A DNA stretch of 42,494 nucleotides from Solirubrobacteraceae bacterium (lineage in GTDB: Bacteria > Actinomycetota > Thermoleophilia > Solirubrobacterales > Solirubrobacteraceae): positions 1-42,494 of the forward strand of contig DASRKZ010000100.1 in NCBI GenBank assembly GCA_035648675.1, given 5' to 3'. Every line of letters begins with the position of its first letter. Position 1 is the first letter of the stretch. A program made the position numbers and the translations under genes. This document shows positions 8,402 to 42,494 of the stretch, one piece after another. The notes under the pieces were generated by a model, which searched no databases, was not told where the DNA came from, and worked only from the letters and a program-made list of their open reading frames with translations.

Positions 8402-8694
8402 CCGGTCGACCTCGACGCGAGCGGCCCCATCCGACGACCGCAGGTGGGGCAGTCGTTGAGATCCTTCTGGGCGAGCTGGTCACACCAGGAGCAGAAGCGC
8501 ATGTTCTCCACCGCCCAGGGCAACCGCGATGCGGAGGGAGCGAGCGGCAGCAGCTTGCCCACCACCTCCAGCGGCTCGCCCGTATAGCGATCGAGGTAGA
8601 TCTCTTGCTGGCCGATCTCCGATCGGTCGGCCTCGATCACTATCTCCCGCCCGCTGGCGGGATTGCGCAGCCGGTAGCGCTGGCTTGTGCTCAC
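8398..8694 (-). CDS. Small protein with C-terminal zinc ribbon (98 aa)
   Basis: CSWC...CPTC motif; GTG start 7 nt after TAGAGT; only the 3' part of ORF 8398-9087 looks coding. Confidence 0.75.
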   Translation of the reverse strand: MSTSQRYRLRNPASGREIVIEADRSEIGQQEIYLDRYTGEPLEVVGKLLPLAPSASRLPWAVENMRFCSWCDQLAQKDLNDCPTCGRRMGPLASRSTG

Positions 8695-14826: not shown

Positions 14827-15762
14827 CTATAGATGGGCGTCGGCGACCATCGCGCAGAACAGCAACGCCAGGTAGGCGAGCGAGAAGAGATACAGCTGAA
14901 GCGCGCTCCGGCGGTCGGCCCGCCGGTAGAGACGGATCGCCCCGGCGATGAAGCCGAGGCCGAGCACGACCGAGGCGACCAGGTAGATATCGCCGAAGCC
15001 CCCCGCGCAGAACGGGAGTTGCGTGACGGCGTAGAGAAGCACGGTGTAGAGCAGGATCTGGCGACGGGTCTCGGCCTCGCCCCGGACGACGGGCAGCATC
15101 GGCACGTTGACCTTCGCGTACTCGTCCTTCATCAGCAGGCTCAGCGCCCAGAAGTGGGGGGGCGTCCAGAAGAAGATGATGAAGAACAGCAGCACCGCCG
15201 TGCCGCTCAGCGACCCGGTGACGGCGGCCCAGCCGACGAGCGGGGGGATCGCGCCGGCGGCCCCGCCGATCACGATGTTCTGTGGCGTGCGCCGCTTCAG
15301 CCAGACCGTGTAGAGGAAGACGTAGCCGAGGAAGCCCGCGAAGGAGAGACTCGCGGCGAGCACGTTTACGGTCAGCGAGAGCTCGAGGAACGACAGCGCG
15401 GCGAGCGTGCAGCCGAAGGCGAGCGCGGCGTTCGGGGATACCCGCCCGGAGGGGACCGGTCGCGTGGCGGTGCGGGCCATCCGCGCGTCGATGTCGCGGT
15501 CATACCAATGGTTGACCGCCCCCGCGCCGCCCGCCGAGAGGTAGCCGCCGAGGCAGGTCAGCGCGACCAGCGACAGCGACGGGTCGCCGGCGACATACAT
15601 CGTGGCGATCGTCGTCAACAGCAGCAGCGACTGGACCTTCGGCTTGGTCAGCTCGACGTAGTCGGCCAGCACCTGACGCGTGCGCGGCGCCAAGCCGACC
15701 GATCGAAGATCGTCCAGCGGCGCCTCGATCACTCCGGCGGCGCCGGTTGGGCGCGCGTTCAT
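14827..15762 (-). CDS. ctaB: Protoheme IX farnesyltransferase (heme o synthase)
   Basis: LTKP, DRDIDARMARTATRP, LKRRTPQNIVIGG, WTPPHFWAL. Confidence 0.96.
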   Translation of the reverse strand: MNARPTGAAGVIEAPLDDLRSVGLAPRTRQVLADYVELTKPKVQSLLLLTTIATMYVAGDPSLSLVALTCLGGYLSAGGAGAVNHWYDRDIDARMARTATRPVPSGRVSPNAALAFGCTLAALSFLELSLTVNVLAASLSFAGFLGYVFLYTVWLKRRTPQNIVIGGAAGAIPPLVGWAAVTGSLSGTAVLLFFIIFFWTPPHFWALSLLMKDEYAKVNVPMLPVVRGEAETRRQILLYTVLLYAVTQLPFCAGGFGDIYLVASVVLGLGFIAGAIRLYRRADRRSALQLYLFSLAYLALLFCAMVADAHL

Positions 15763-20107: not shown

Positions 20108-21172
20108 GTGCGGCGGTCGAACGCCATTCGAGCAGCCGCCTGGGGGGTCGTCGTCGCGGGCGTCGCCGCCCCATTGGTGCGCAAGCGGGTCAAGGCTCCG
20201 CCGATCGTCACCCAGACGGTCGCCTTTGCCGCCCCCTTCGGCCTATGCGTGGCGATGCGTCGCTCGCGCACCCGTGACGTGGCCACCTGCGCCTTGCAGA
20301 TGTGGGCCTATCTGGCGGCCTACAAGTCGCCGCACGACGACCCCGCCGCCCAGGAGCGACGGGTGCGCATCGACTACCCGATCGTCGGCGATCGCGTGCT
20401 GGGCTTGGGCGAGCTGCCGACGATGCGCCTGCAACGCGCGCTTGCCCGGTGCGGCCCGGATGGCCCGGAGTGGCACGCTCTCGACCGCGTGCTGGTGTGG
20501 GCGCATTGGGCGTGGTTCATGGTGCCCCACGGCTCGCTCGCCTACATCCTCCTGCGCCACCGCGGGCGCTTCCCGCGGGCCGCCGTGATGACCTACGCGG
20601 TGTTCGACATCGGCGCGACCGTCTACTGGCTGCTCCCGACCGCTCCGCCCTGGTACGCCGCCTCGGCGGCCGCGCGCGGCGCGGCCGAGCGCGGGTCGGA
20701 GGCGTCGCCGTCGGAGGCGCCGGCCGAACGCGGGTCGGGAGTGTCGCCGCCGGAGGCGATGGTCGAGCGCGGGTCGGGAGTGTCGCCGTCGGAGGCGATG
20801 GTCGAGCCGGAGATCCGGCGGATGATGGTCGAGTACGGGGAGTTCTTCTGGCGAGACGGCTGGGGCCCGCTCTACAGTGTCTTCGGAGGTAACCCCTTAG
20901 CCGCGATGCCCTCGCTGCACTTCGCCACATCCCTGATGGCCGCGCTCCTGCTCACCGAGGTAGGGCCGGTCGTCGGCGTGCTCGGCTGGAGCTATACCGC
21001 GACGCTCGGATTCGCGCTTGTCTACCTCGGGGAGCACTATGTGGTGGACCTGCTCGCCGGGGCCGTGTTGACGGCGGCGGTGCGGCGCCTGGCCCCGCGC
21101 GCGGGGCCGGTTGTGGCGGGGGTCGGCCGGGCCGTGGCGGCGCTCGAGGCGCAGGCGCACGCGGCGGGTTGA
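20108..21172 (+). CDS. PAP2-superfamily membrane enzyme (AUR1/PAP2_3-like)
   Basis: PTAPPW, AMPSLH and HYVVD motifs with multiple TM segments. Confidence 0.85.
   Translation: MRRSNAIRAAAWGVVVAGVAAPLVRKRVKAPPIVTQTVAFAAPFGLCVAMRRSRTRDVATCALQMWAYLAAYKSPHDDPAAQERRVRIDYPIVGDRVLGLGELPTMRLQRALARCGPDGPEWHALDRVLVWAHWAWFMVPHGSLAYILLRHRGRFPRAAVMTYAVFDIGATVYWLLPTAPPWYAASAAARGAAERGSEASPSEAPAERGSGVSPPEAMVERGSGVSPSEAMVEPEIRRMMVEYGEFFWRDGWGPLYSVFGGNPLAAMPSLHFATSLMAALLLTEVGPVVGVLGWSYTATLGFALVYLGEHYVVDLLAGAVLTAAVRRLAPRAGPVVAGVGRAVAALEAQAHAAG
20687..20806 (+). repeat. In-frame 39-bp tandem repeat x3
   Basis: GAGCGCGGGTCGG...GGAGGCG unit encoding ERGS(E/G)(A/V)SP(S/P)EA(P/M)(A/V). Confidence 0.9.
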
Positions 21173-27463: not shown

Positions 27464-27745
27464 GACCGTGCATGGAGCGCCGACCGATCTGCGATCGGTG
27501 GGCCGGGATCTGTTCGAGCGCCGCTACCCATACCTCTCCGGTGGCGCTCGAACAGGTCTCGGCGGGCGCGCTCCATGCCGGTCGAGCAGCGACGGGCCTC
27601 CTCAGCAGCACAGGTGAGTAGCACGGGTAAGTAGGACAGACCTTCGAGCCGTGGGCTTGGAGATAGCCGCCCGCCCCCCGGATCTCAGGGCGCCTCGGGT
27701 CGGCCAGGCCCATGTCAAGCGGGCCGGCCCGGGGGGCGGCCGTAC
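27464..27745 (+). ncRNA. Candidate structured non-coding RNA
   Basis: 23-bp helix 27502-27524/27541-27563 whose only non-Watson-Crick pairs are G-U on the + strand, closed by an outer stem 27464-27480/27568-27583; further stems at 27650-27740; TTGACA motifs upstream. Confidence 0.5.
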
Positions 27746-31390: not shown

Positions 31391-31632
31391 ACGGAGGCGG
31401 AGGCTAGCAGCTGAAGTCGGCGAGCTGCGCGAGTTCTGGGCCGGCGAACTCGTGGTTGAGCCGAGCTCGATCCGGATGCAACGCAAGTCGAACAGCAATC
31501 AGCTCACAGGCCGCATGTGGCGCTCGCGACACGGCGTTCTCACGATCCGTGTGTGCGATACATGCTTTCGGTCAAGTCTCCAGGCATGGATGGATTCCCT
31601 ACGCTCCGGGTGGGAGTAGACTGACCTCACTT

Positions 31633-31706
31633 CGGGGCGTGGCGCAGCCTGGTAGCGCGCACCGTTTGGGGCGGTGAGGTCCCCGGTTCGAATCCGGGCG
31701 CCCCGA
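31633..31706 (+). tRNA. tRNA-Pro(TGG), CCA end not encoded
   Basis: CGGGGCG/CGCCCCG acceptor stem, anticodon arm CACCG-TTTGGGG-CGGTG, GGTTCGAATCC T-loop. Confidence 0.97.
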
Positions 31707-31739
31707 TACGGAGAAAGTCCCTGCAAATTGGCTGGGTAG

Positions 31740-32675
31740 AAGGATCTCGGTCTGACCCAGACCCAGGTGTCGGTCTTGGCCGCGCTGCGTGACGCGCCGC
31801 TAGGCCTCGTCTCGATCCGAGCAGTGGCACGCAGAGCCGGCGTCTCACCGACCGCCAGCGCGCACGCGCTGGACGCTCTGCTTGGAGACGGACTCGTCAA
31901 GCGCGAGTCCACGACACTCGCTGCCGGCTCTGCGAGGCCGGCGGAGCTTCTGCATCTGAATCGCCGTGCGCCGCGCTGGAGGCGGATAGCCCCCTTGCTG
32001 GCTCCTGTGCGACCGCCCGTTCGTCCCGTTGCCCCGCGCGAGCAGCGGGTCCCGCCGGCCCTGCGCCATCTGTTCTGGAACACCGCGCCGGCGCAGCTGG
32101 ACGTTCTCCGCGGCGGCCCCTACATCGCACGCCGGCTGCTGCGCACGATGGATCTCGAGGGGCTTGCGTGGGGCGCGAGCAACCTGAGAAGCGCCGACTG
32201 GCTGCAGGCACAGAAGGCGCGTGGTCTTGACGCCCAGGTGCGGGCGCTTGCCCGCAACCTCGCGGCCACAGCAGGGGATGGCACGAAGGTTGAGTTTCTG
32301 CACGCCGATGAGGTACGCCGGCAGCTGTTGCTGCGCGAGCCGACCGAGGTGGCCGGACTGCGCGTAGCGGCACTCGAGGACCTGATGGCGATGAAGCTGA
32401 AGGTGATCGGCGATCGCGGCGAGGCGCGCGACTACTTCGACGTCATGAGCATCGATGAGAATGGCGCCGTGACGCTCGAGGACGGCATCGCCCTGTTCCT
32501 CGAACGCTACGAGCTCGCATCATCAAGCGAGGCCCTGTCGCACCTGGTCGGTGCGCTCGGCTACCTCGACGACGTGGAGCAGGACGACTCGCTGCCGCTT
32601 GACAAACGTGCCCTCGCTCGCTGGTGGCAGGAGCGCCAACCCCGCCTCGTGCGCGAGCTGAGCCGCCGAGGCTAG
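31740..32675 (+). pseudogene. Fused remnant of an AbiE-like (type IV TA) pair: HTH/antitoxin-like part joined to the C-half of a nucleotidyltransferase toxin
   Basis: HTH-like N-part and LFWN motif, then AMKL..RGEARDYFD; the N-terminal GG..DxD catalytic half is absent; reading frame opens after a stop at 31737 with no start until 31767. Confidence 0.6.
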
Positions 32676-34340: not shown

Positions 34341-34458
34341 GACGGTCGTGAGTCGAGCGGGGCGCGGACGCAGGGAGCGTGGCGTGCTGTGCACGCGAGC
34401 GACCGAGGACAAAGCACCGATCGAAGATCGGCTAGCGAAGCGCTCACGCCCGTCCTAG
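34337..34458. mobile_element. MITE/REP-like element, copy 2, bounded by CTAG
   Basis: CTAGGACGGTCGTGAG ... CTCACGCCCGTCCTAG inverted ends (1 mismatch); shares internal blocks with 2555-2601. Confidence 0.65.

Positions 34459-34758: not shown

Positions 34759-34775
<17 letters not shown>
34455..34775 (-). CDS. HxlR-family winged-helix regulator
   Basis: [33 protein letters not shown]. Confidence 0.9.
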
Positions 34776-37194
<2,419 letters not shown>

Positions 37195-37216
37195 ATGAGC
37201 TTACGAAAGTTTAGTT

Positions 37217-37245
37217 AGTATAGCGCCAGGTCGTTGCGAGCGCAA
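37217..37245 (-). promoter_or_regulatory. sigma70-type promoter of lon
   Basis: TTGCGC-17 nt-TATACT on the minus strand, 22 nt above the ATG. Confidence 0.7.
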
Positions 37246-37306
37246 GTACTTTTGGGGTCACCCCATAAATGGCGTTGCAGAGCCTTAAATGGGCTTAAGA
37301 GATGTA

Positions 37307-37472
37307 CGAGCCGCACATGTGCGGCTCGCCGGACGGCGCATGCGCCGTCCGCGGGAGGGCCGCATGCGGCCCTCCTCGGGGGCGCGCATGCGCGCCCCCG
37401 CCTGCCGCGCATGCGCGGCAGGAACGTCGGGCCGCATGCGGCCCGACGCAGGCAGGTGCATGCACCTGCCTG
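37307..37472. repeat. Array of seven perfect CATG-centred palindromes (22-24 bp each)
   Basis: Units at 37307-28, 37330-51, 37354-75, 37377-400, 37401-22, 37425-48 and 37449-72 are each their own reverse complement. Confidence 0.95.
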
Positions 37473-37515
37473 AACCACATCAGCCTCCTTCCAATGCGCC
37501 TGTCTGACCCGAGCC

Positions 37516-38472
37516 TTACCCGGGACCGTCGAAGTTGACCTCGACGTTCTCCTCCTCGACGCGCTCCTCGGTCTCCGCGGATGACGTGAGCGCGCGCTTG
37601 TCGGCGTCGAGCAGCGGTTGCGAGAAGAAGCTACGCGGCCACAACCGCCGCGCTCGCACGACGTTGATCTCCGCCGCGATCAGCGTGACCTGGCCGCCGA
37701 GATAGAGCCAGGCGAGCAGGCCGAGGACGAACGCGAACAGGCCGGAGGTCTCCTGCGCGTGGCGGACGACATGCGCGACGTAGTAGCCGCCGATGTGCTG
37801 CAGGATCTGCCACAGCACGGCCGCGAAGATCACGCCGGGGATCAGATCGCGAGTCGGTATCTCCTCAGGGCTGAGGAACCGGAAGGCGGCGAAGAACAGC
37901 AGCAGGTTGAACACCAGCGCGAGCAGGACCCCGCCGATCACGGCAACGAGCCCCTCCGTCTGCGCGGTCACGTAACCGGCGGCGACGGTCGAGACGATCA
38001 GCAGCAGGCCGAGGACGGCGATCAGACCGAGCCCGCGCAGCCGCCAGGCGAGGAAGTTTGGCCGGTGCTTGCGCGGGATGTGCCAGACCTGCTGGAAGGC
38101 ATTCTGGGTGACGCCGACGATCCCGAGGCCGCCGAGCAGCAGTCCGACGACGCCGATCGCCAGCGCGCCGGCGCTGCCTTTGATCGAGTGGATGTTGCTC
38201 TGCAGCTGGTTGCCGATGATCGGGAACTGGCCGAGGGTCGAGTGCAGGACTTCGGTCTGGGTCTTCGGATCTCCTTCGAGCACGAAGCCGAGCACCGTGA
38301 CGAGCACGAGCAGCAGTGGGAACAACGAGACGAAGCCGTAGTAGGCGATCAACGCCGCGAGCTGCCCGGCCTGGTCGTCACCGAACTTCTTGATCACCGC
38401 GGCGGGGAAGCTCAGCCGCCGGTGGCGCTGCTGGATGCGGTCCAGCGCCTGGAGACGATCGGTGAGGCTCAT
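37516..38472 (-). CDS. YihY/virulence factor BrkB family membrane protein
   Basis: AALIAYYGFVSLFPLLL, PG.I.AA.LW, LAWLYL...LIAAEIN; start ATG 38472. Confidence 0.92.
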   Translation of the reverse strand: MSLTDRLQALDRIQQRHRRLSFPAAVIKKFGDDQAGQLAALIAYYGFVSLFPLLLVLVTVLGFVLEGDPKTQTEVLHSTLGQFPIIGNQLQSNIHSIKGSAGALAIGVVGLLLGGLGIVGVTQNAFQQVWHIPRKHRPNFLAWRLRGLGLIAVLGLLLIVSTVAAGYVTAQTEGLVAVIGGVLLALVFNLLLFFAAFRFLSPEEIPTRDLIPGVIFAAVLWQILQHIGGYYVAHVVRHAQETSGLFAFVLGLLAWLYLGGQVTLIAAEINVVRARRLWPRSFFSQPLLDADKRALTSSAETEERVEEENVEVNFDGPG

Positions 38473-38644
38473 CCGATCGCACGCGAACCGATCGCCGCTC
38501 CGATCAAAGCAGCACGGACACCGGCTTGGCGAGAGTCGAATTGGGAGGGGGGTCTCGGTGCGGGAACGCTCGACATGGGGTGTGTCTACCCGATGTGAGC
38601 CGCAAATACGAGCGCTGGACGGCCGCCTGCGAATCGGCGCCGAG

Positions 38645-39235
38645 GTGGGCGAGAGCTCCGATCGGGTCCCCAACGGGCCCGGCCGGCTACAGGAGATGGC
38701 GCTCGTCGTGCAGGCCCGCCGCGAGCTGTTGCTGCGCGCGCACCGCCACCGGTTACGGAAGGAGGATCTGGAGGATTGCTACAGCCAGGCCACGCTCGAG
38801 CTGCTCGCGCAAGCGCGCGGGGGAAGCGCGTTCTCGACTCGCCTGCACATGGCCAATGTGCTCGAGCAGCGGTTCCTCTCGCGGATTCACGATCGCCGCC
38901 GCGCCCTGCGCGGGCGCAGCCCCGCGCAGGCGGCGCTCGACGACGCGCTGTCGTTGGGAGGCTGCGGTGAGGGAGATCTCGAGGTCGCGGATGTCCGCGC
39001 CGAGACCGACAAGCTCGTGATGCTGCGGATGGATCTGCGCAGCCTGGGAAGGGTCATGCCCGAGCTGACACCGGATCAACGACTTGTCCTGATCAGCAGG
39101 GTCGACGCGGGCATCGAATGCGTCGAGTTCTGCCGCCGGTCCGGATGGTCAAAGGAGAAGTACCGCAAGGTCGCCCAACGTGCCCGGGCGCGCCTGCGAG
39201 AGCTGCTGGCCCGTGAGGAAGATTTTTGCGTGTGA
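38645..39235 (+). CDS. Divergent ECF/sigma70-like regulator
   Basis: Region-2-like EDLEDCYSQATLELL..IHDRRRA and region-4-like LTPDQRLVL..KVAQRARARLRELL; start 38645 or 38696. Confidence 0.6.
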   Translation: MGESSDRVPNGPGRLQEMALVVQARRELLLRAHRHRLRKEDLEDCYSQATLELLAQARGGSAFSTRLHMANVLEQRFLSRIHDRRRALRGRSPAQAALDDALSLGGCGEGDLEVADVRAETDKLVMLRMDLRSLGRVMPELTPDQRLVLISRVDAGIECVEFCRRSGWSKEKYRKVAQRARARLRELLAREEDFCV

Positions 39236-39445
39236 GTGTCCCGTTCGGGGCCGGTGGTCGGAGAGGGAGATAGGGACCCCTATGAATATCTCTCCCCCCA
39301 TTCATAGGTGTTCCCAGGGACGCCGGCGATCGATCGGACGGACGAGCGCTCGGCGATGCCCATCCGCTGGCGACCGGAGGCCGGGTACCTCCTTGCCCTG
39401 GCTTCCGGTCGCCTGCTTGCTCGGATGTGCGGCGGTGAGCGGGTA

Positions 39446-40084
39446 ATGCTGCTGCGACGGCGCCCGCGTGAGGTCTACCGCGTATACACCGAGGAGGAGT
39501 ATCTGAACGGAGCCGGGTCGGAGCTCGCGGGCGCACGCGAGTGGCCGGAGATGGTCGAGCCCGCGGGAAAGGGCGCCGGCGAGCGTCGTCGGCTGCGCCG
39601 GGCGGCCGGGGTGGCGATGCTGGCCGGGGCGATGGGAACTGTGGGCGGCGTGGTCGCCACGAACGGCTCACGGGCGCACGACGGCACCGGAAGACGGCCG
39701 GGGAACATGGTTGCCGCAACATCTTCGAAGCGGATCGTGCGAGCCCCCCTGATTGCCCGCTCCACCGGGACACCATCTCGATCGGTCGCTACGCGTCCCC
39801 CTCAGGCCACGAGCCGGCGTCCCCCTCAGGCCACGAGCCGGCGTGTCGCACCGGCCGGACGACATCGCGGGGCCGCGGGTACTCGGCTTCCCCTCCACCC
39901 TCGCGAGGGGGTTGCGAGTGTTGTTGAGAATTCCTCCGGCGCCTCAGCGGATAGAGCGCCCGTCGTCGTCGTTGTCACCACCACCCCCGTTGCCTCGGCC
40001 GATGTGAGCACGACCGCCGGCTCGACGGGCGCGAGCGCCGCATCGGCGGGAGCGGGACGCCCCGAGTTCGGATTCGAGCGCTGA
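39446..40084 (+). CDS. Hypothetical single-TM protein at the head of the transfer operon
   Basis: MLLRRRPREVYRVYTEEEYL, one hydrophobic segment, low-complexity linker, ends EFGFER; abuts the TcpC-like gene. Confidence 0.6.
   Translation: MLLRRRPREVYRVYTEEEYLNGAGSELAGAREWPEMVEPAGKGAGERRRLRRAAGVAMLAGAMGTVGGVVATNGSRAHDGTGRRPGNMVAATSSKRIVRAPLIARSTGTPSRSVATRPPQATSRRPPQATSRRVAPAGRHRGAAGTRLPLHPREGVASVVENSSGASADRAPVVVVVTTTPVASADVSTTAGSTGASAASAGAGRPEFGFER
39793..39844 (+). repeat. Exact 24-bp tandem duplication, in frame
   Basis: GCGTCCCCCTCAGGCCACGAGCCG x2 (RPPQATSR). Confidence 0.9.
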
Positions 40085-40972
40085 GTGATGCGCGTAACTC
40101 AGGGGAATGCACGGGTGAGGATCGGGACGCGGCCGCTGTGGCGGATCCGAACGGCACGAGAATGGCCCCGCTACCTCGTGAGCGCGGTGGCCGTGACGGG
40201 GCTCGCGGCAAGTGTGCGCTTTGCGATCGACCCGCCGCGGCCGGCGACGCCGAGGGTAGCCGCACGCGCACCCGCGCCGACAGACCTCGCGGCCGAGGGC
40301 TTCGCGTCGTTGTTCGCGCGCAGCTATCTGACGTGGAACGCCGCGGATCCCCAAGCCCACGAACAGGGGCTGGCCTCGTTCGCCGGGCCCGGGATCGATC
40401 CGGATGGGGGACTGCAGCCACCCTCGAGCGGTGAGGAGCGGGTGGAGTGGACCGAAGTCGTGCAGGAGCGCGAATTGGAATTGGTGCCCGCCCGCCCCGA
40501 GCACGTCTACACGGTGGCCGCGCAGACCGACGACGCGGGCCTGGAGTACTTGACGGTGAGCGTCGTGCGCACGGCCGGCGGGAGCTTGGCGCTGGGCGGT
40601 TATCCCGCCTTCGTGGGGGCGCCGGCCAGCGGCCCGGCACAGGCATCCTCGTCGCAGGGGCGCCTGCGCGAAGTGGAGGAACCGGCGCTTGCGACGGTTG
40701 TGGGGCGCGCGCTGCGCAACTACCTGTCCGCCTCGGGCTCGGAGCTTGCGGCCGACCTGACGAGCGACGCGCACGTCTCGTTGCCGGCGGGGGGGTTGAG
40801 CCTGGAATCGGTTCAGCGCCTGGACTGGGCGCCGGGCGCGGGTGCGGTGCTCGCCGTGGTGCAGGCGCAGGACGGACGCGGTGCTCGATACACGCTCGCC
40901 TACGAACTCGACGTTGCCCAGGTACAGGGCCGCTGGGAGGTCTCCGCGATCCAGATGAACCCCGACTCCTAA
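40085..40972 (+). CDS. TcpC-like (VirB8-like) conjugal transfer protein
   Basis: N-terminal TM, then FASLFARSYLTW and two NTF2-like halves ending RWEVSAI. Confidence 0.7.
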   Translation: MMRVTQGNARVRIGTRPLWRIRTAREWPRYLVSAVAVTGLAASVRFAIDPPRPATPRVAARAPAPTDLAAEGFASLFARSYLTWNAADPQAHEQGLASFAGPGIDPDGGLQPPSSGEERVEWTEVVQERELELVPARPEHVYTVAAQTDDAGLEYLTVSVVRTAGGSLALGGYPAFVGAPASGPAQASSSQGRLREVEEPALATVVGRALRNYLSASGSELAADLTSDAHVSLPAGGLSLESVQRLDWAPGAGAVLAVVQAQDGRGARYTLAYELDVAQVQGRWEVSAIQMNPDS

Positions 40973-40997
40973 CCCCGAACCGAACGAAGGAGCTCGC

Positions 40998-41408
40998 ATG
41001 AAAACCATCCACCATCCTCGCCTCTCGCGATCGGCGGCGGCGCGATCGGCGGCAGCCGTGGGATGCGCCGTCCTCGCGCTTGCCTGCACGTGGACGGCCG
41101 CCACGCCAGCCGCCGGGCGGGTGGCGATCGAAGCGTCTCCTCAGGCGAACACCCAGCAGTCCGTCCCCTCCGAAAAGGCGGGAACATCGCTCGAATCGGC
41201 CGCCGCGAAGGCGGGTGATACGGCCCGCACGGTGGCGATGAGCCTGATCGGGCTCGCCCTCGCGATCGCGTCGATCGTGCTGGCCTTCCGTCGTGACTTC
41301 AAGGAGGCGGCGGGCGTCTTCGCGGTGGGGATCGTCGCCGTGCTGCTGGCCACCCCGGCGGGCTTGAGCCTGCTGCAAGACACCGTCACGTCGCTGTTCG
41401 GATCCTGA
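40998..41408 (+). CDS. Small membrane protein (TrbC/VirB2- or TcpD-like)
   Basis: Signal sequence plus two TM helices separated by FRRDFK; lies between TcpC- and TcpE-like genes. Confidence 0.55.
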   Translation: MKTIHHPRLSRSAAARSAAAVGCAVLALACTWTAATPAAGRVAIEASPQANTQQSVPSEKAGTSLESAAAKAGDTARTVAMSLIGLALAIASIVLAFRRDFKEAAGVFAVGIVAVLLATPAGLSLLQDTVTSLFGS

Positions 41409-41413
41409 GAGAG

Positions 41414-42001
41414 ATGGAGATTCGCTCCTACCGCGCCGTGTTCGACCTGGAGCGGCGCATCTATCGCGTCGACCGGCTGCGGCTGAACCCCGGTGGGATT
41501 CCGGTGCGGGGCGTCGTCTACTTCCTCGCGATCCTCGCCGCCACGTTGATCCTCGGCGGTCTGCCACTCGTGGGAGACGCGGTCGAGGCGCTCCCCTGGT
41601 ACTTGCGCGATCTCGCGCTGCCGGTGGCGAGCGCCACGGTGCTGAGCGTGATCCGAATCGAGGGCCGGCCATTTCACCTGGCGGCGTATGCGCTGCTGCG
41701 CTACCGCGTCGGCGCGCGCCACCTCGCCGGTGTGCGCCCCTGCGGGGCGCTCGGCGCGTGTTGGCATCCGGAGGAGATCCTGATGCTGCCGGACGGCTCC
41801 GACGGGAGGATGCGCCGGCTGCGCTACACGGGCCCCGGAGCCGTGCTTGTCGCCACTGCGCACGAGCGAATCGAGAGCAGGGGTCCTCTGGGCGGCGCCC
41901 GGCTGACGCTACGCGAACTTCCAGAGGAGCGTGCTCCTACTCAAGGACAGGTGATCGCGCTTGCGCGCAGCGTTCGGATGCGGGTCGGGGGGAGGCGGTG
42001 A
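41414..42001 (+). CDS. TcpE-family (VirB3-like) conjugal transfer membrane protein
   Basis: IRSYRAVFDLERRIYRVD..P.GIP N-terminus, two TMs, IEGRP. Confidence 0.72.
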   Translation: MEIRSYRAVFDLERRIYRVDRLRLNPGGIPVRGVVYFLAILAATLILGGLPLVGDAVEALPWYLRDLALPVASATVLSVIRIEGRPFHLAAYALLRYRVGARHLAGVRPCGALGACWHPEEILMLPDGSDGRMRRLRYTGPGAVLVATAHERIESRGPLGGARLTLRELPEERAPTQGQVIALARSVRMRVGGRR

Positions 42002-42494
42002 AGCCGCCGATCGGCTTCGTATACGGCAACTGCGTCTTCGCGGACGCGCTCGATGACGGCTGGGCCGCCTTCGCGGTCGAGTCGGCCTCGTATGAGTGGC
42101 TCGCGGAGGATGGCAAGCGCGCGAGGTTCCTCGCGCTGCTCGGAGCGCTGGAGGCGATCGAGGCCGACGTGCAGATCCTGCGCGTAGGGCGGCGCTGGGA
42201 CCTGGCGCGGTATGCGCGCGAGCTCGAGAATGACGGGCACAGCGCTCACCACGCACGCGCGAAGCGACGCTATCTGGAGGAGCACAGAGAGCGCCTGACG
42301 GAGATCGGCGACGCGCGGCCGGAGGTGTTCCTGATGGTGAGCCTGCGCGATCCCGAGCGTGACGTCGCGGCCTATGTCTCACGCGCCGCCGAGCGTCATC
42401 CGCGCGAGTGGCTGGAGGGGGTGAGGCGCGCCTTCTCGGTGCGAGACAGACGCGTGCTGAAGGTCTCAGAGCTCGAGCGCGCACGGGTCCGCGC
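41998..42494 (+). CDS. Probable VirB4/TcpF-like ATPase, N-terminal part (runs off window; not in ORF track)
   Basis: GTG overlaps the TcpE stop (GTGA); open to the window end: VKPPIGFVYGNCVF..WAAF..SYEWL; identity inferred from position, Walker motifs not visible. Confidence 0.6.
   Translation, partial: MKPPIGFVYGNCVFADALDDGWAAFAVESASYEWLAEDGKRARFLALLGALEAIEADVQILRVGRRWDLARYARELENDGHSAHHARAKRRYLEEHRERLTEIGDARPEVFLMVSLRDPERDVAAYVSRAAERHPREWLEGVRRAFSVRDRRVLKVSELERARVR

Follow-up and report, generated by a model that had tools for sequence, protein, structure and literature searches.

Arrays of perfect CATG-centred palindromes with paired arm changes form a dispersed repeat family in soil Solirubrobacteraceae

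The palindrome arrays described here are a dispersed repeat family of soil Solirubrobacteraceae genomes. The array from which the analysis started lies in the window (the whole stretch of 42,494 nucleotides of contig DASRKZ010000100.1 that was analysed), and others of the same make-up recur in its genome (G000) and in its relatives. On balance, we favour reading such an array as a small non-autonomous mobile element of three hairpins, whose arms would be homogenised by fold-back copying and which would be spread by a putative enzyme acting in trans. New here are the three unit types A, B and C, a motif at the array end, a TT at the joints between trimers, and the counts of two-arm versus one-arm changes. 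No published description of the repeat family was found in the open literature searched.

The original observation of seven perfect palindromes, including their lengths and spacings, was confirmed exactly at 37307-37472. The lengths are 22, 22, 22, 24, 22, 24 and 24 bp, and the centres lie 23, 24, 24, 23, 25 and 24 bp apart (Table 1). Seven palindromes of at least 22 bp compare with a mean of 0.05 and a maximum of 1 in 60 first-order Markov simulations of the window, where the only other perfect palindrome of at least 16 bp is an 18-mer at 21091. Folded as a single strand, the region gives seven hairpins, each separate from the others and with a loop of 4 nt (z -10.1 as ssDNA and -7.9 as RNA). 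Unit 1 was recognisable in 10/10 array-bearing lon orthologues, either identical or with two-arm changes, and its centre is disrupted in one of them (G075). The window array departs from the clean A-B-C order described below and looks rearranged. The putative lon promoter, about 60 bp from the array, is largely conserved in orthologues with and without an array; a promoter scan program called none there.

Table 1. Features of the lon-yihY region of the window
Feature	Position	Strand	Remarks
lon protease gene	34759..37194	-	downstream of the array, same strand as yihY
Putative lon promoter	37217..37245	-	TTGCGC, 17 bp, TATACT; read by eye
Probable degenerate end-motif copy, lon side	37301..37306	+	GATGTA/C; assigned by eye
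Unit 7	37307..37328		22-bp perfect palindrome whose core is ACATGT; B-like by eye; missing in the closest relative examined, G095
Unit 6	37330..37351		22-bp perfect palindrome; A-like by eye; missing in G095
Unit 5	37354..37375		22-bp perfect palindrome; C-like by eye; one two-arm substitution versus the G095 orthologue
Unit 4	37377..37400		24-bp perfect palindrome; same sequence in G095
Unit 3	37401..37422		22-bp perfect palindrome; same sequence in G095
Unit 2	37425..37448		24-bp perfect palindrome; same sequence in G095 and G078
Unit 1	37449..37472		24-bp perfect palindrome; best-conserved unit at the lon-yihY site
Family end motif	37473..37478	-	GTGGTT then C; consensus GCTGTT/C
yihY/BrkB-family ORF (longest start)	37516..38673	-	stop codon 43 bp from the array

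An assembly artefact was considered and rejected. A separately assembled unitig of run X1, which may be the window's own source, covers 37197-37800 without a difference, and at the same site G095 has four of the units unchanged and a fifth that differs by a two-arm change. The statement that the array is not a tandem repeat, a CRISPR array or a terminator also held: it has no spacers, Cas1 was found in 0/5 genomes, no intrinsic terminator (hairpin plus U-tract) was found in 37100-37620, and Rfam and ARAGORN returned only a tRNA-Pro in the window. Elsewhere in the window (31632-32675), an ORF that matches the AbiEii nucleotidyl-transferase family comes after a tRNA-Pro; this segment is missing at the syntenic place in G070, a close relative without arrays.

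In G000, whose assembly comprises 1.9 Mb and is 63% complete, we found 65 units in 15 arrays (3-7 units per array) as well as one clear singleton. The other 14 arrays adjoin housekeeping or regulatory genes. A strict three-unit pattern matched 88/121 congeners, and a looser pattern matched 17/201 genomes of the family, distributed over 4/45 genera; the number of pattern matches per near-complete congener ranged from 0 to over 100. An order-wide draw gave matches in 22/76 genomes of the family versus 0/174 genomes of four other families, counts to be read with one match in genus g48 uninspected and two matches in G227 that are tandem repeats. Among the 80 matches listed in an all-species scan, 70 belong to Solirubrobacterales or Solirubrobacteraceae. 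Five of the remaining ten listed were viewed and are simple tandem repeats; the other five, from the same assembly as two of those, were dropped unseen. A scan of viral contigs gave 2 matches, neither of them an array, and BLAST against plasmids and phages gave short partial matches only, with no array; the best of these, in a Streptomyces plasmid, is without any perfect palindrome of 16 bp. None of the 30 matches in a metagenome scan was a full palindromic unit. Long (TACATG)n and (GCAT)n microsatellites were encountered in assemblies labelled Metamycoplasmataceae and Nitrospirales (L075, L131, L092 and five further loci) and point to contamination by eukaryotic DNA.

This distribution bears on the proposal that the neighbouring conjugation module uses the array as its single-strand or transfer origin. 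The window does hold a conjugation-like module at 38390-42494, with a TcpC-family gene (40085-40972) flanked by ORFs on both sides and a left part that also occurs in G095, and the array folds strongly as ssDNA. But the chromosomal yihY gene stands between array and module, the 14 arrays at other places in the genome have no conjugation gene among the neighbours scanned, arrays stand at 109 distinct loci of the sample, and no array occurs in the viral contigs, phages and plasmids searched. The transfer-origin reading is thereby largely refuted and is now highly improbable; the module is unlinked to the array. The analogy to Streptomyces telomeres did not survive either: the arrays are internal, here between lon and yihY, and dozens are internal in single-contig chromosomes.

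The anatomy of the family was derived from 145 arrays with 670 units (141 arrays once repeats were removed), a unit being counted only if at least 9 of 11 arm pairs match. The core consensus over the 145 arrays is YRCATGYR, and the spacing between units is 24 in 456/525 steps. The central 20-mers are diverse (342 distinct among 670 units), and only 25/6700 arm pairs are mismatched, with G-U pairs almost absent; the perfect half-length is 12 bp in 797/1060 units. Three unit types, A, B and C, gave the best BIC. Among 512 steps between neighbours, the types followed each other as A to B in 134, B to C in 131, C to C in 55, B to B in 51 and C to A in 37; of the 141 arrays, 108 begin with type A and 103 end with type C. 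The motif GCTGTT/C marks one array end, and arrays of genus g1 usually have it at a single end. Trimers make up nearly all of the arrays examined in genera g16, g46 and g57; many trimers of G302 carry the end motif on both sides, and a degenerate GCTGTT...AACAGC pair borders many g16 trimers. A TT is present at 20/75 C-A joints, compared with 0/191 A-B, 2/189 B-C and 1/69 C-C joints, and could be a 2-nt duplication at the junction of trimers. We infer that the basic module consists of three hairpins in about 80 bp and that longer arrays are joined modules.

Neighbouring units rarely resemble one another. Identical neighbours occurred once in 512 steps; for exact identity between units of one array, the shortage is not significant (1 versus 2.8 expected, P 0.22). 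Near-identical units (at most 2 of 9 bases different) within an array were rarer than in within-genome shuffles in 4/4 genomes, with 2 observed pairs versus 11.1 shuffled in G000, 2 versus 16.8 in G095, 1 versus 11.8 in G023 and 21 versus 36.4 in G302. Trimers are more alike within G302. Two-unit blocks common to different loci of one genome reached about twice the shuffled mean, a value inside the shuffled range.

How the arms stay perfect was examined by comparing G000 with G095. In 35 matched units at 10 common loci, 30 changes affected both arms and 1 affected one arm, a divergence of 9.5% per pair; a further 17 units were without a match within 3 differences. At four-fold sites of four flanking genes, 177/828 positions (21%) differ between the two genomes, and the arm-pair divergence is about half of that. 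Another 15 hand-picked pairs with 66 units gave 38 two-arm and 6 one-arm changes, one-arm counts being lowered throughout by the unit filter (at least 9 of 11 pairs). A two-arm single-base indel was seen at the locus on contig C97, and one array in an ABC-F gene is reversed in place. Arm copying is not universal; decayed arrays with one-arm changes were found in the ABC-F genes of G084 and G114. Beside 888 CATG units we recorded 28 in-phase hairpins with other centres, of which 8 read CACG and 7 CAAG, several are indels (one of them CATATG) and a few are unrelated. No symmetric loop substitution occurred among the 28, and the 15 in-phase units with CACG or CAAG centres keep near-perfect arms, their loop mutations being one-sided.

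By a hand estimate, a mismatch occupancy of about 0.4% together with a flux of 0.095 per pair needs mismatches to disappear about 100 times faster than by point mutation. Such an exit rate is not easily explained by two successive mutations under selection, but it can be provided by copying from arm to arm, and the one-sided loop mutants point to a fold-back form of copying. It is thus likely, from these comparisons of sequences, that both arms change together because one arm is copied from the other. The earlier suggestion of fold-back copying fits the comparative data in both respects, the ratio of 30 two-arm changes to 1 one-arm change and the one-sided loops. Template switching that converts imperfect to perfect inverted repeats has been described in bacteria (PMC5941160) and for RNA hairpins (10.1101/2021.04.15.439925). 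Arm copying is the best-supported part of our overall reading, and it is a step shared with the three alternatives considered below.

We then asked where the arrays sit. With genes called by a codon-based caller built for this analysis, the 109 distinct loci fell into 57 tandem, 36 convergent, 12 divergent and 4 intragenic positions. Of the 95 loci with a neighbouring gene end, 80 lie within 34 bp of a stop codon, and convergent gaps are enriched (36/105 versus 227/1483 gene pairs, P about 1e-6). Some arrays lie in frame inside genes. Among the 30 best orthologues of an ABC-F protein, the linker contains an in-frame array in 12, a decayed array in 3 and no array in 15; in-frame arrays also occur in LeuS and in a further protein that, by its motifs, is probably LysA. 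In those examined (loci L199-L228, L063, L008, L021, L089, L101, L006 and L106), CAT is read as a His codon, and the arrays encode Ala/Pro/His-rich 8-residue repeats in protein loops.

This placement is what would be expected if the arrays were RNA elements selected by the host, in which stacks of stable hairpins shortly past stop codons shield the 3' ends of mRNAs or make transcription from either side pause or stop, while an RNA-binding protein recognises the CAUG loop; copying between arms could still supply the symmetry. Besides the 80/95 loci close to a stop codon and the enriched convergent gaps, the folding of the RNA into seven separate hairpins argues for such a role, as does the rarity of near-identical units in 4/4 genomes, which independent folding would need. 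Similar roles have been proposed for REPs (PMC3733652). Against it, no U-tract follows the hairpins here, the arrays are perfect even inside coding loops, 12/109 loci lie between divergent genes, and the close relative G070 is without arrays. G-U pairs, which are common in RNA-selected stems, are almost absent from the stems of this family. A bias towards stop codons is, moreover, equally expected from the survival of insertions. We consider a host-selected RNA element rather improbable.

Gain and loss of arrays were followed at several sites. At lon-yihY, 10/30 orthologues carry an array. Unrelated small genes occupy the same gap in several congeners (L040, L041, L048 and L056), and the gap may be a hot spot for insertions. 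Between G000 and G095, whole units are gained or lost and some sites are filled in one genome but empty in the other, and some new units appear at the motif-bearing end of an array. In a lon tree of 30 genomes, G070 and G027 are nested in the carrier clade. G070 had no unit in 1.45 Mb (the genome is 53% complete), and 7/7 alignable sites are empty in it, with ragged edges. Neither a clean target duplication nor a precise empty site turned up in the comparisons of G000 with G095, with G070 and among the lon orthologues, where empty sites are ragged. Six loci are common across genera, and many loci are old and inherited. Because the sequenced part of G070 is empty, filled and empty sites coexist and some loci are common across genera, the family is old, once mobile and dispensable.

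Gaps between arrays, among the matches listed, were more even than random in G023 (CV 0.64, P 0.00075, first 2.6 Mb) and G094 (CV 0.69, P 0.015), but not significantly so in G136 (P 0.32) and G302 (P 0.12); the same test on two further partial lists gave P 0.03 and 0.47. Array orientation showed no replichore polarity (15/29, 6/15 and 8/14). Restriction-site avoidance was considered as well; CATG occurs at 0.95, GCATGC at 0.84 and ACATGT at 0.72 of expectation, values that were not decisive.

The evenness raises the alternative that the arrays are double-stranded platforms, placed every 60-100 kb or so, where a protein that organises the chromosome or acts on its topology binds and recognises YRCATGYR every 24 bp, the symmetry of the arms being a by-product of template switching. 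A core and a period that are kept while arms drift, gap variation below random in G023 and G094 among the matches listed, and loci common across genera all speak for a platform. We regard it as unlikely, given that evenness is not significant in G136 or G302 among the matches listed, that these genomes share loci, that near-complete congeners range from 0 to over 100 pattern matches, that orientation ignores the replichores, and that in the rest of the genome the core 8-mers show neither enrichment nor avoidance.

A mobilising partner was sought in carriers and in array-free relatives. Y1/RAYT transposases (PF01797) were detected in 4/121 congeners and 0/19 further genomes, with no units at those five loci, and a regular expression for the HUH motif found nothing in 1682 called genes. 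Y2 transposases (PF04986) were found in 0/5 genomes, a search in which the control set was equally silent. Reverse transcriptase was found in 1/5 genomes, and the one in G000 has no unit nearby; this gene (L465, G000:C32:10880-11533), a 425-aa frame, is missing in four array-rich near-complete relatives. The survey of insertion sequences covered the rve transposases. The rve genes occur in 33/43 genomes and do not track the arrays, being missing in 7 carriers and found in array-free genomes; 20 of their loci of about 3 kb, from over 150 matches, held no array unit. No recurrent mobile gene stood beside the arrays: the 45 largest clusters of 507 neighbouring ORFs, read by eye, are all chromosomal. 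Among 96 candidate genes lost syntenically in the array-free G070, none was an evident mobiliser by eye; this list contains many false entries from broken frames, and both genomes are incomplete.

The hairpin nuclease gene sbcD was present in 1/121 congeners, that one array-free, and in 0/17 carriers versus 44/184 other genomes of the family (P 0.012, with kin not independent). This association is weak. The gene occurs in only 12/45 genera, 140/184 array-free genomes are also without it, and in cells the main targets of SbcCD are much longer palindromes. Lack of SbcCD may be permissive for arrays.

These searches bring in the alternative that no dedicated enzyme exists and that general replication and repair in a lineage without SbcCD, by template switching, slippage and ectopic copying, create, spread and homogenise the arrays. 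That the partner searches found none and that carriers are without sbcD agree with this, as does the correction of imperfect inverted repeats by template switching in bacteria (PMC5941160). The account does not explain, however, why the untemplated loop is invariant, why there is an end motif and an A-B-C order, or why the half-length is 12 bp; slippage would produce identical neighbours, which were seen once in 512, and 140/184 array-free genomes likewise are without sbcD. It is quite unlikely that the arrays arise in this way.

The reading that we favour on balance, the three-hairpin mobile element, would work as follows. A single-stranded unit would form a hairpin with a stem of 10 bp and CATG as its loop. 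Where one arm is mismatched, an intramolecular template switch would overwrite it from the other, the loop being untemplated. Because the loop and the adjoining YR steps are unrepaired yet nearly invariant, YRCATGYR is presumably read by some factor, most likely the one that makes or inserts new copies. The moving unit would be the three-hairpin module of about 80 bp. Longer arrays would result from modules joined at the TT/C junction, followed by loss of single units, and similar units within one array would be removed by slippage or cross-pairing. Copies would survive mainly just past stop codons and in tolerant protein loops. What was observed directly is the family itself, its three types and their order, the GCTGTT/C end, the TT at trimer joints, the two-arm substitutions, the one-sided loop mutations, gain or loss of whole units, the in-frame copies and the absence of arrays from the sequenced part of G070. 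Mobility is supported by the 109 distinct loci, by in-frame copies in ABC-F and LeuS loops whose orthologues include array-free ones, by the sites filled or empty between G000 and G095 and by the greater likeness of trimers within G302. Against this reading, no mobilising enzyme was found among the families searched; evenness in 2 of the 4 best-listed genomes is unpredicted by pure selfish spread, and the many old inherited loci, six of them cross-genus, also fit host selection.

A more specific version, which we put forward only tentatively, makes the family a class of self-templating mini-elements. A ruler enzyme would read the CATG loop of the folded hairpin together with the GTT/C end, cut 12 nt from the centre and recopy each arm from its partner. 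It would insert three-hairpin modules at new sites and into existing arrays, with a four-way junction formed when the ends pair. If true, this would account for arrays of mutually dissimilar hairpins that are fairly evenly spread along the chromosome.

The origin, spread and upkeep of small palindromic repeats is an open question that this family addresses. To our knowledge, RAYT-linked REPs are the only small palindromic repeats with a known enzyme. The present family separates the parts of the problem, with arms that drift in pairs, a loop that is unrepaired but conserved, and sister lineages with and without arrays. The extent to which arms are corrected from a template can be read from it in nature (divergence about half that at four-fold sites, with mismatches at about 0.4%), and comparison of sister genomes provides a direct route to the putative spreading factor. 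Through the arrays, loops of proteins such as LeuS also gain 8-residue repeats rich in Ala, His and Pro. A dedicated hairpin-copying integrase, should one exist, would represent a new kind of enzyme for mobile DNA.

Two other palindromic motifs were noticed in G000. One, CCGATC-TYC-GATCGG, forms a short hairpin with a 3-nt loop, which reads GAA on one strand in some copies. It lies at 8612-8626, 15699-15713, 27484-27498 and 34417-34431 of the window and at about 26 sites genome-wide, about half inside ORFs; strict copies number 18 in G000 and 6 in the array-free G070, and it also occurs beside several arrays in relatives. The other comprises 22 single, mostly intergenic palindromes of 22-24 bp in G000, GTGTGTAAC-YATR-GTTACACAC, often after GGAG or GAGG, one of which is a perfect 24-mer with a CATG centre. 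They lie on contigs C1, C21, C35, C40, C44, C52, C71, C75, C77, C81, C91, C92, C97, C120, C157, C163, C188, C192 and C197, with none in the window, and may serve as a regulator site or represent a further REP-like repeat.

Several known systems resemble the arrays in part. Integron cassette arrays and CRISPR arrays offer only an analogy: a (G)TT junction seems to join the modules, and some new units appear at the motif-bearing end. CRISPR arrays combine identical repeats, foreign spacers and Cas1; the palindrome arrays have neither such repeats nor such spacers and occupy many loci, not one, and Cas1 was found in 0/5 genomes. The attC sites of integrons have a GTTRRRY core and bulged bases, whereas the array end reads GTTC then C or G and the stems have no bulges. 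IS91 and related rolling-circle elements use a Y2 transposase and a GTTC target. An origin of an integrative conjugative element would be confined to that element, and a telomere to the end of a linear replicon; the 15 arrays of G000 stand beside chromosomal genes, and arrays are internal. Cyanobacterial small dispersed repeats of 21-27 nt are an analogue.

BOX elements of streptococci, RPE of Rickettsia and MIRU of mycobacteria are likewise small, non-coding, modular or palindromic and dispersed; they too are sometimes fused in frame to genes, and they are presumed to be moved in trans (PMC3184786). Compared with MITE-like repeats, the present family has only a 6-7-nt end motif, often one-sided, and no clear target duplication, and no autonomous insertion sequence carrying a unit was met in the 20 rve loci searched. 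Correction of quasi-palindromes by template switching shows the same two-arm substitutions and indels, uncorrected loop and in-place inversion (PMC5941160), and here, too, two-arm changes dominate and the loop is uncorrected. That correction is a mutational process at scattered inverted repeats, and alone it gives no fixed loop, period, order or end motif.

The closest likeness is to REP/BIME repeats, which have palindromic units of 20-40 bp at tens of loci per genome in clusters of ordered types, and which lie mostly just past coding regions in tandem or convergent positions, some in frame inside genes (PMC3733652). The units described here are of 22-26 bp (65 in 15 arrays in G000), mainly downstream of genes in tandem or convergent positions. 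In most REP families over 90% of units bear a GTAG-type or CGTC tag at the foot, and CGTC REPs are also without a dedicated transposase, as outlined in PMC3733652. Our units abut and leave no room for a tag; the array end reads GTAG in 10/141, GYRG in 36/141 and CGTC in 0/141, and PF01797 genes, the cognate RAYTs of REPs, are present in 4/121 congeners, none flanked by units. REPs have linkers and units conserved in sequence, whereas here linkers are absent and the arms are unconserved yet perfectly paired (see also PMC8266576 and PMC6006769). REPIN clusters consist of near-identical tandem repeats (PMC3116915), while neighbouring units here avoid likeness. REP membership was rejected on four counts: no GTAG or CGTC tag, no RAYT, no linkers and no conservation of unit sequence. 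Of the original caution that the units might be a known genome-wide REP family, dispersal through the genome proved right; by the tests run, a known REP family they are not. The family is a variant of the dispersed palindromic repeat that stands outside REP and works like REP/BIME.
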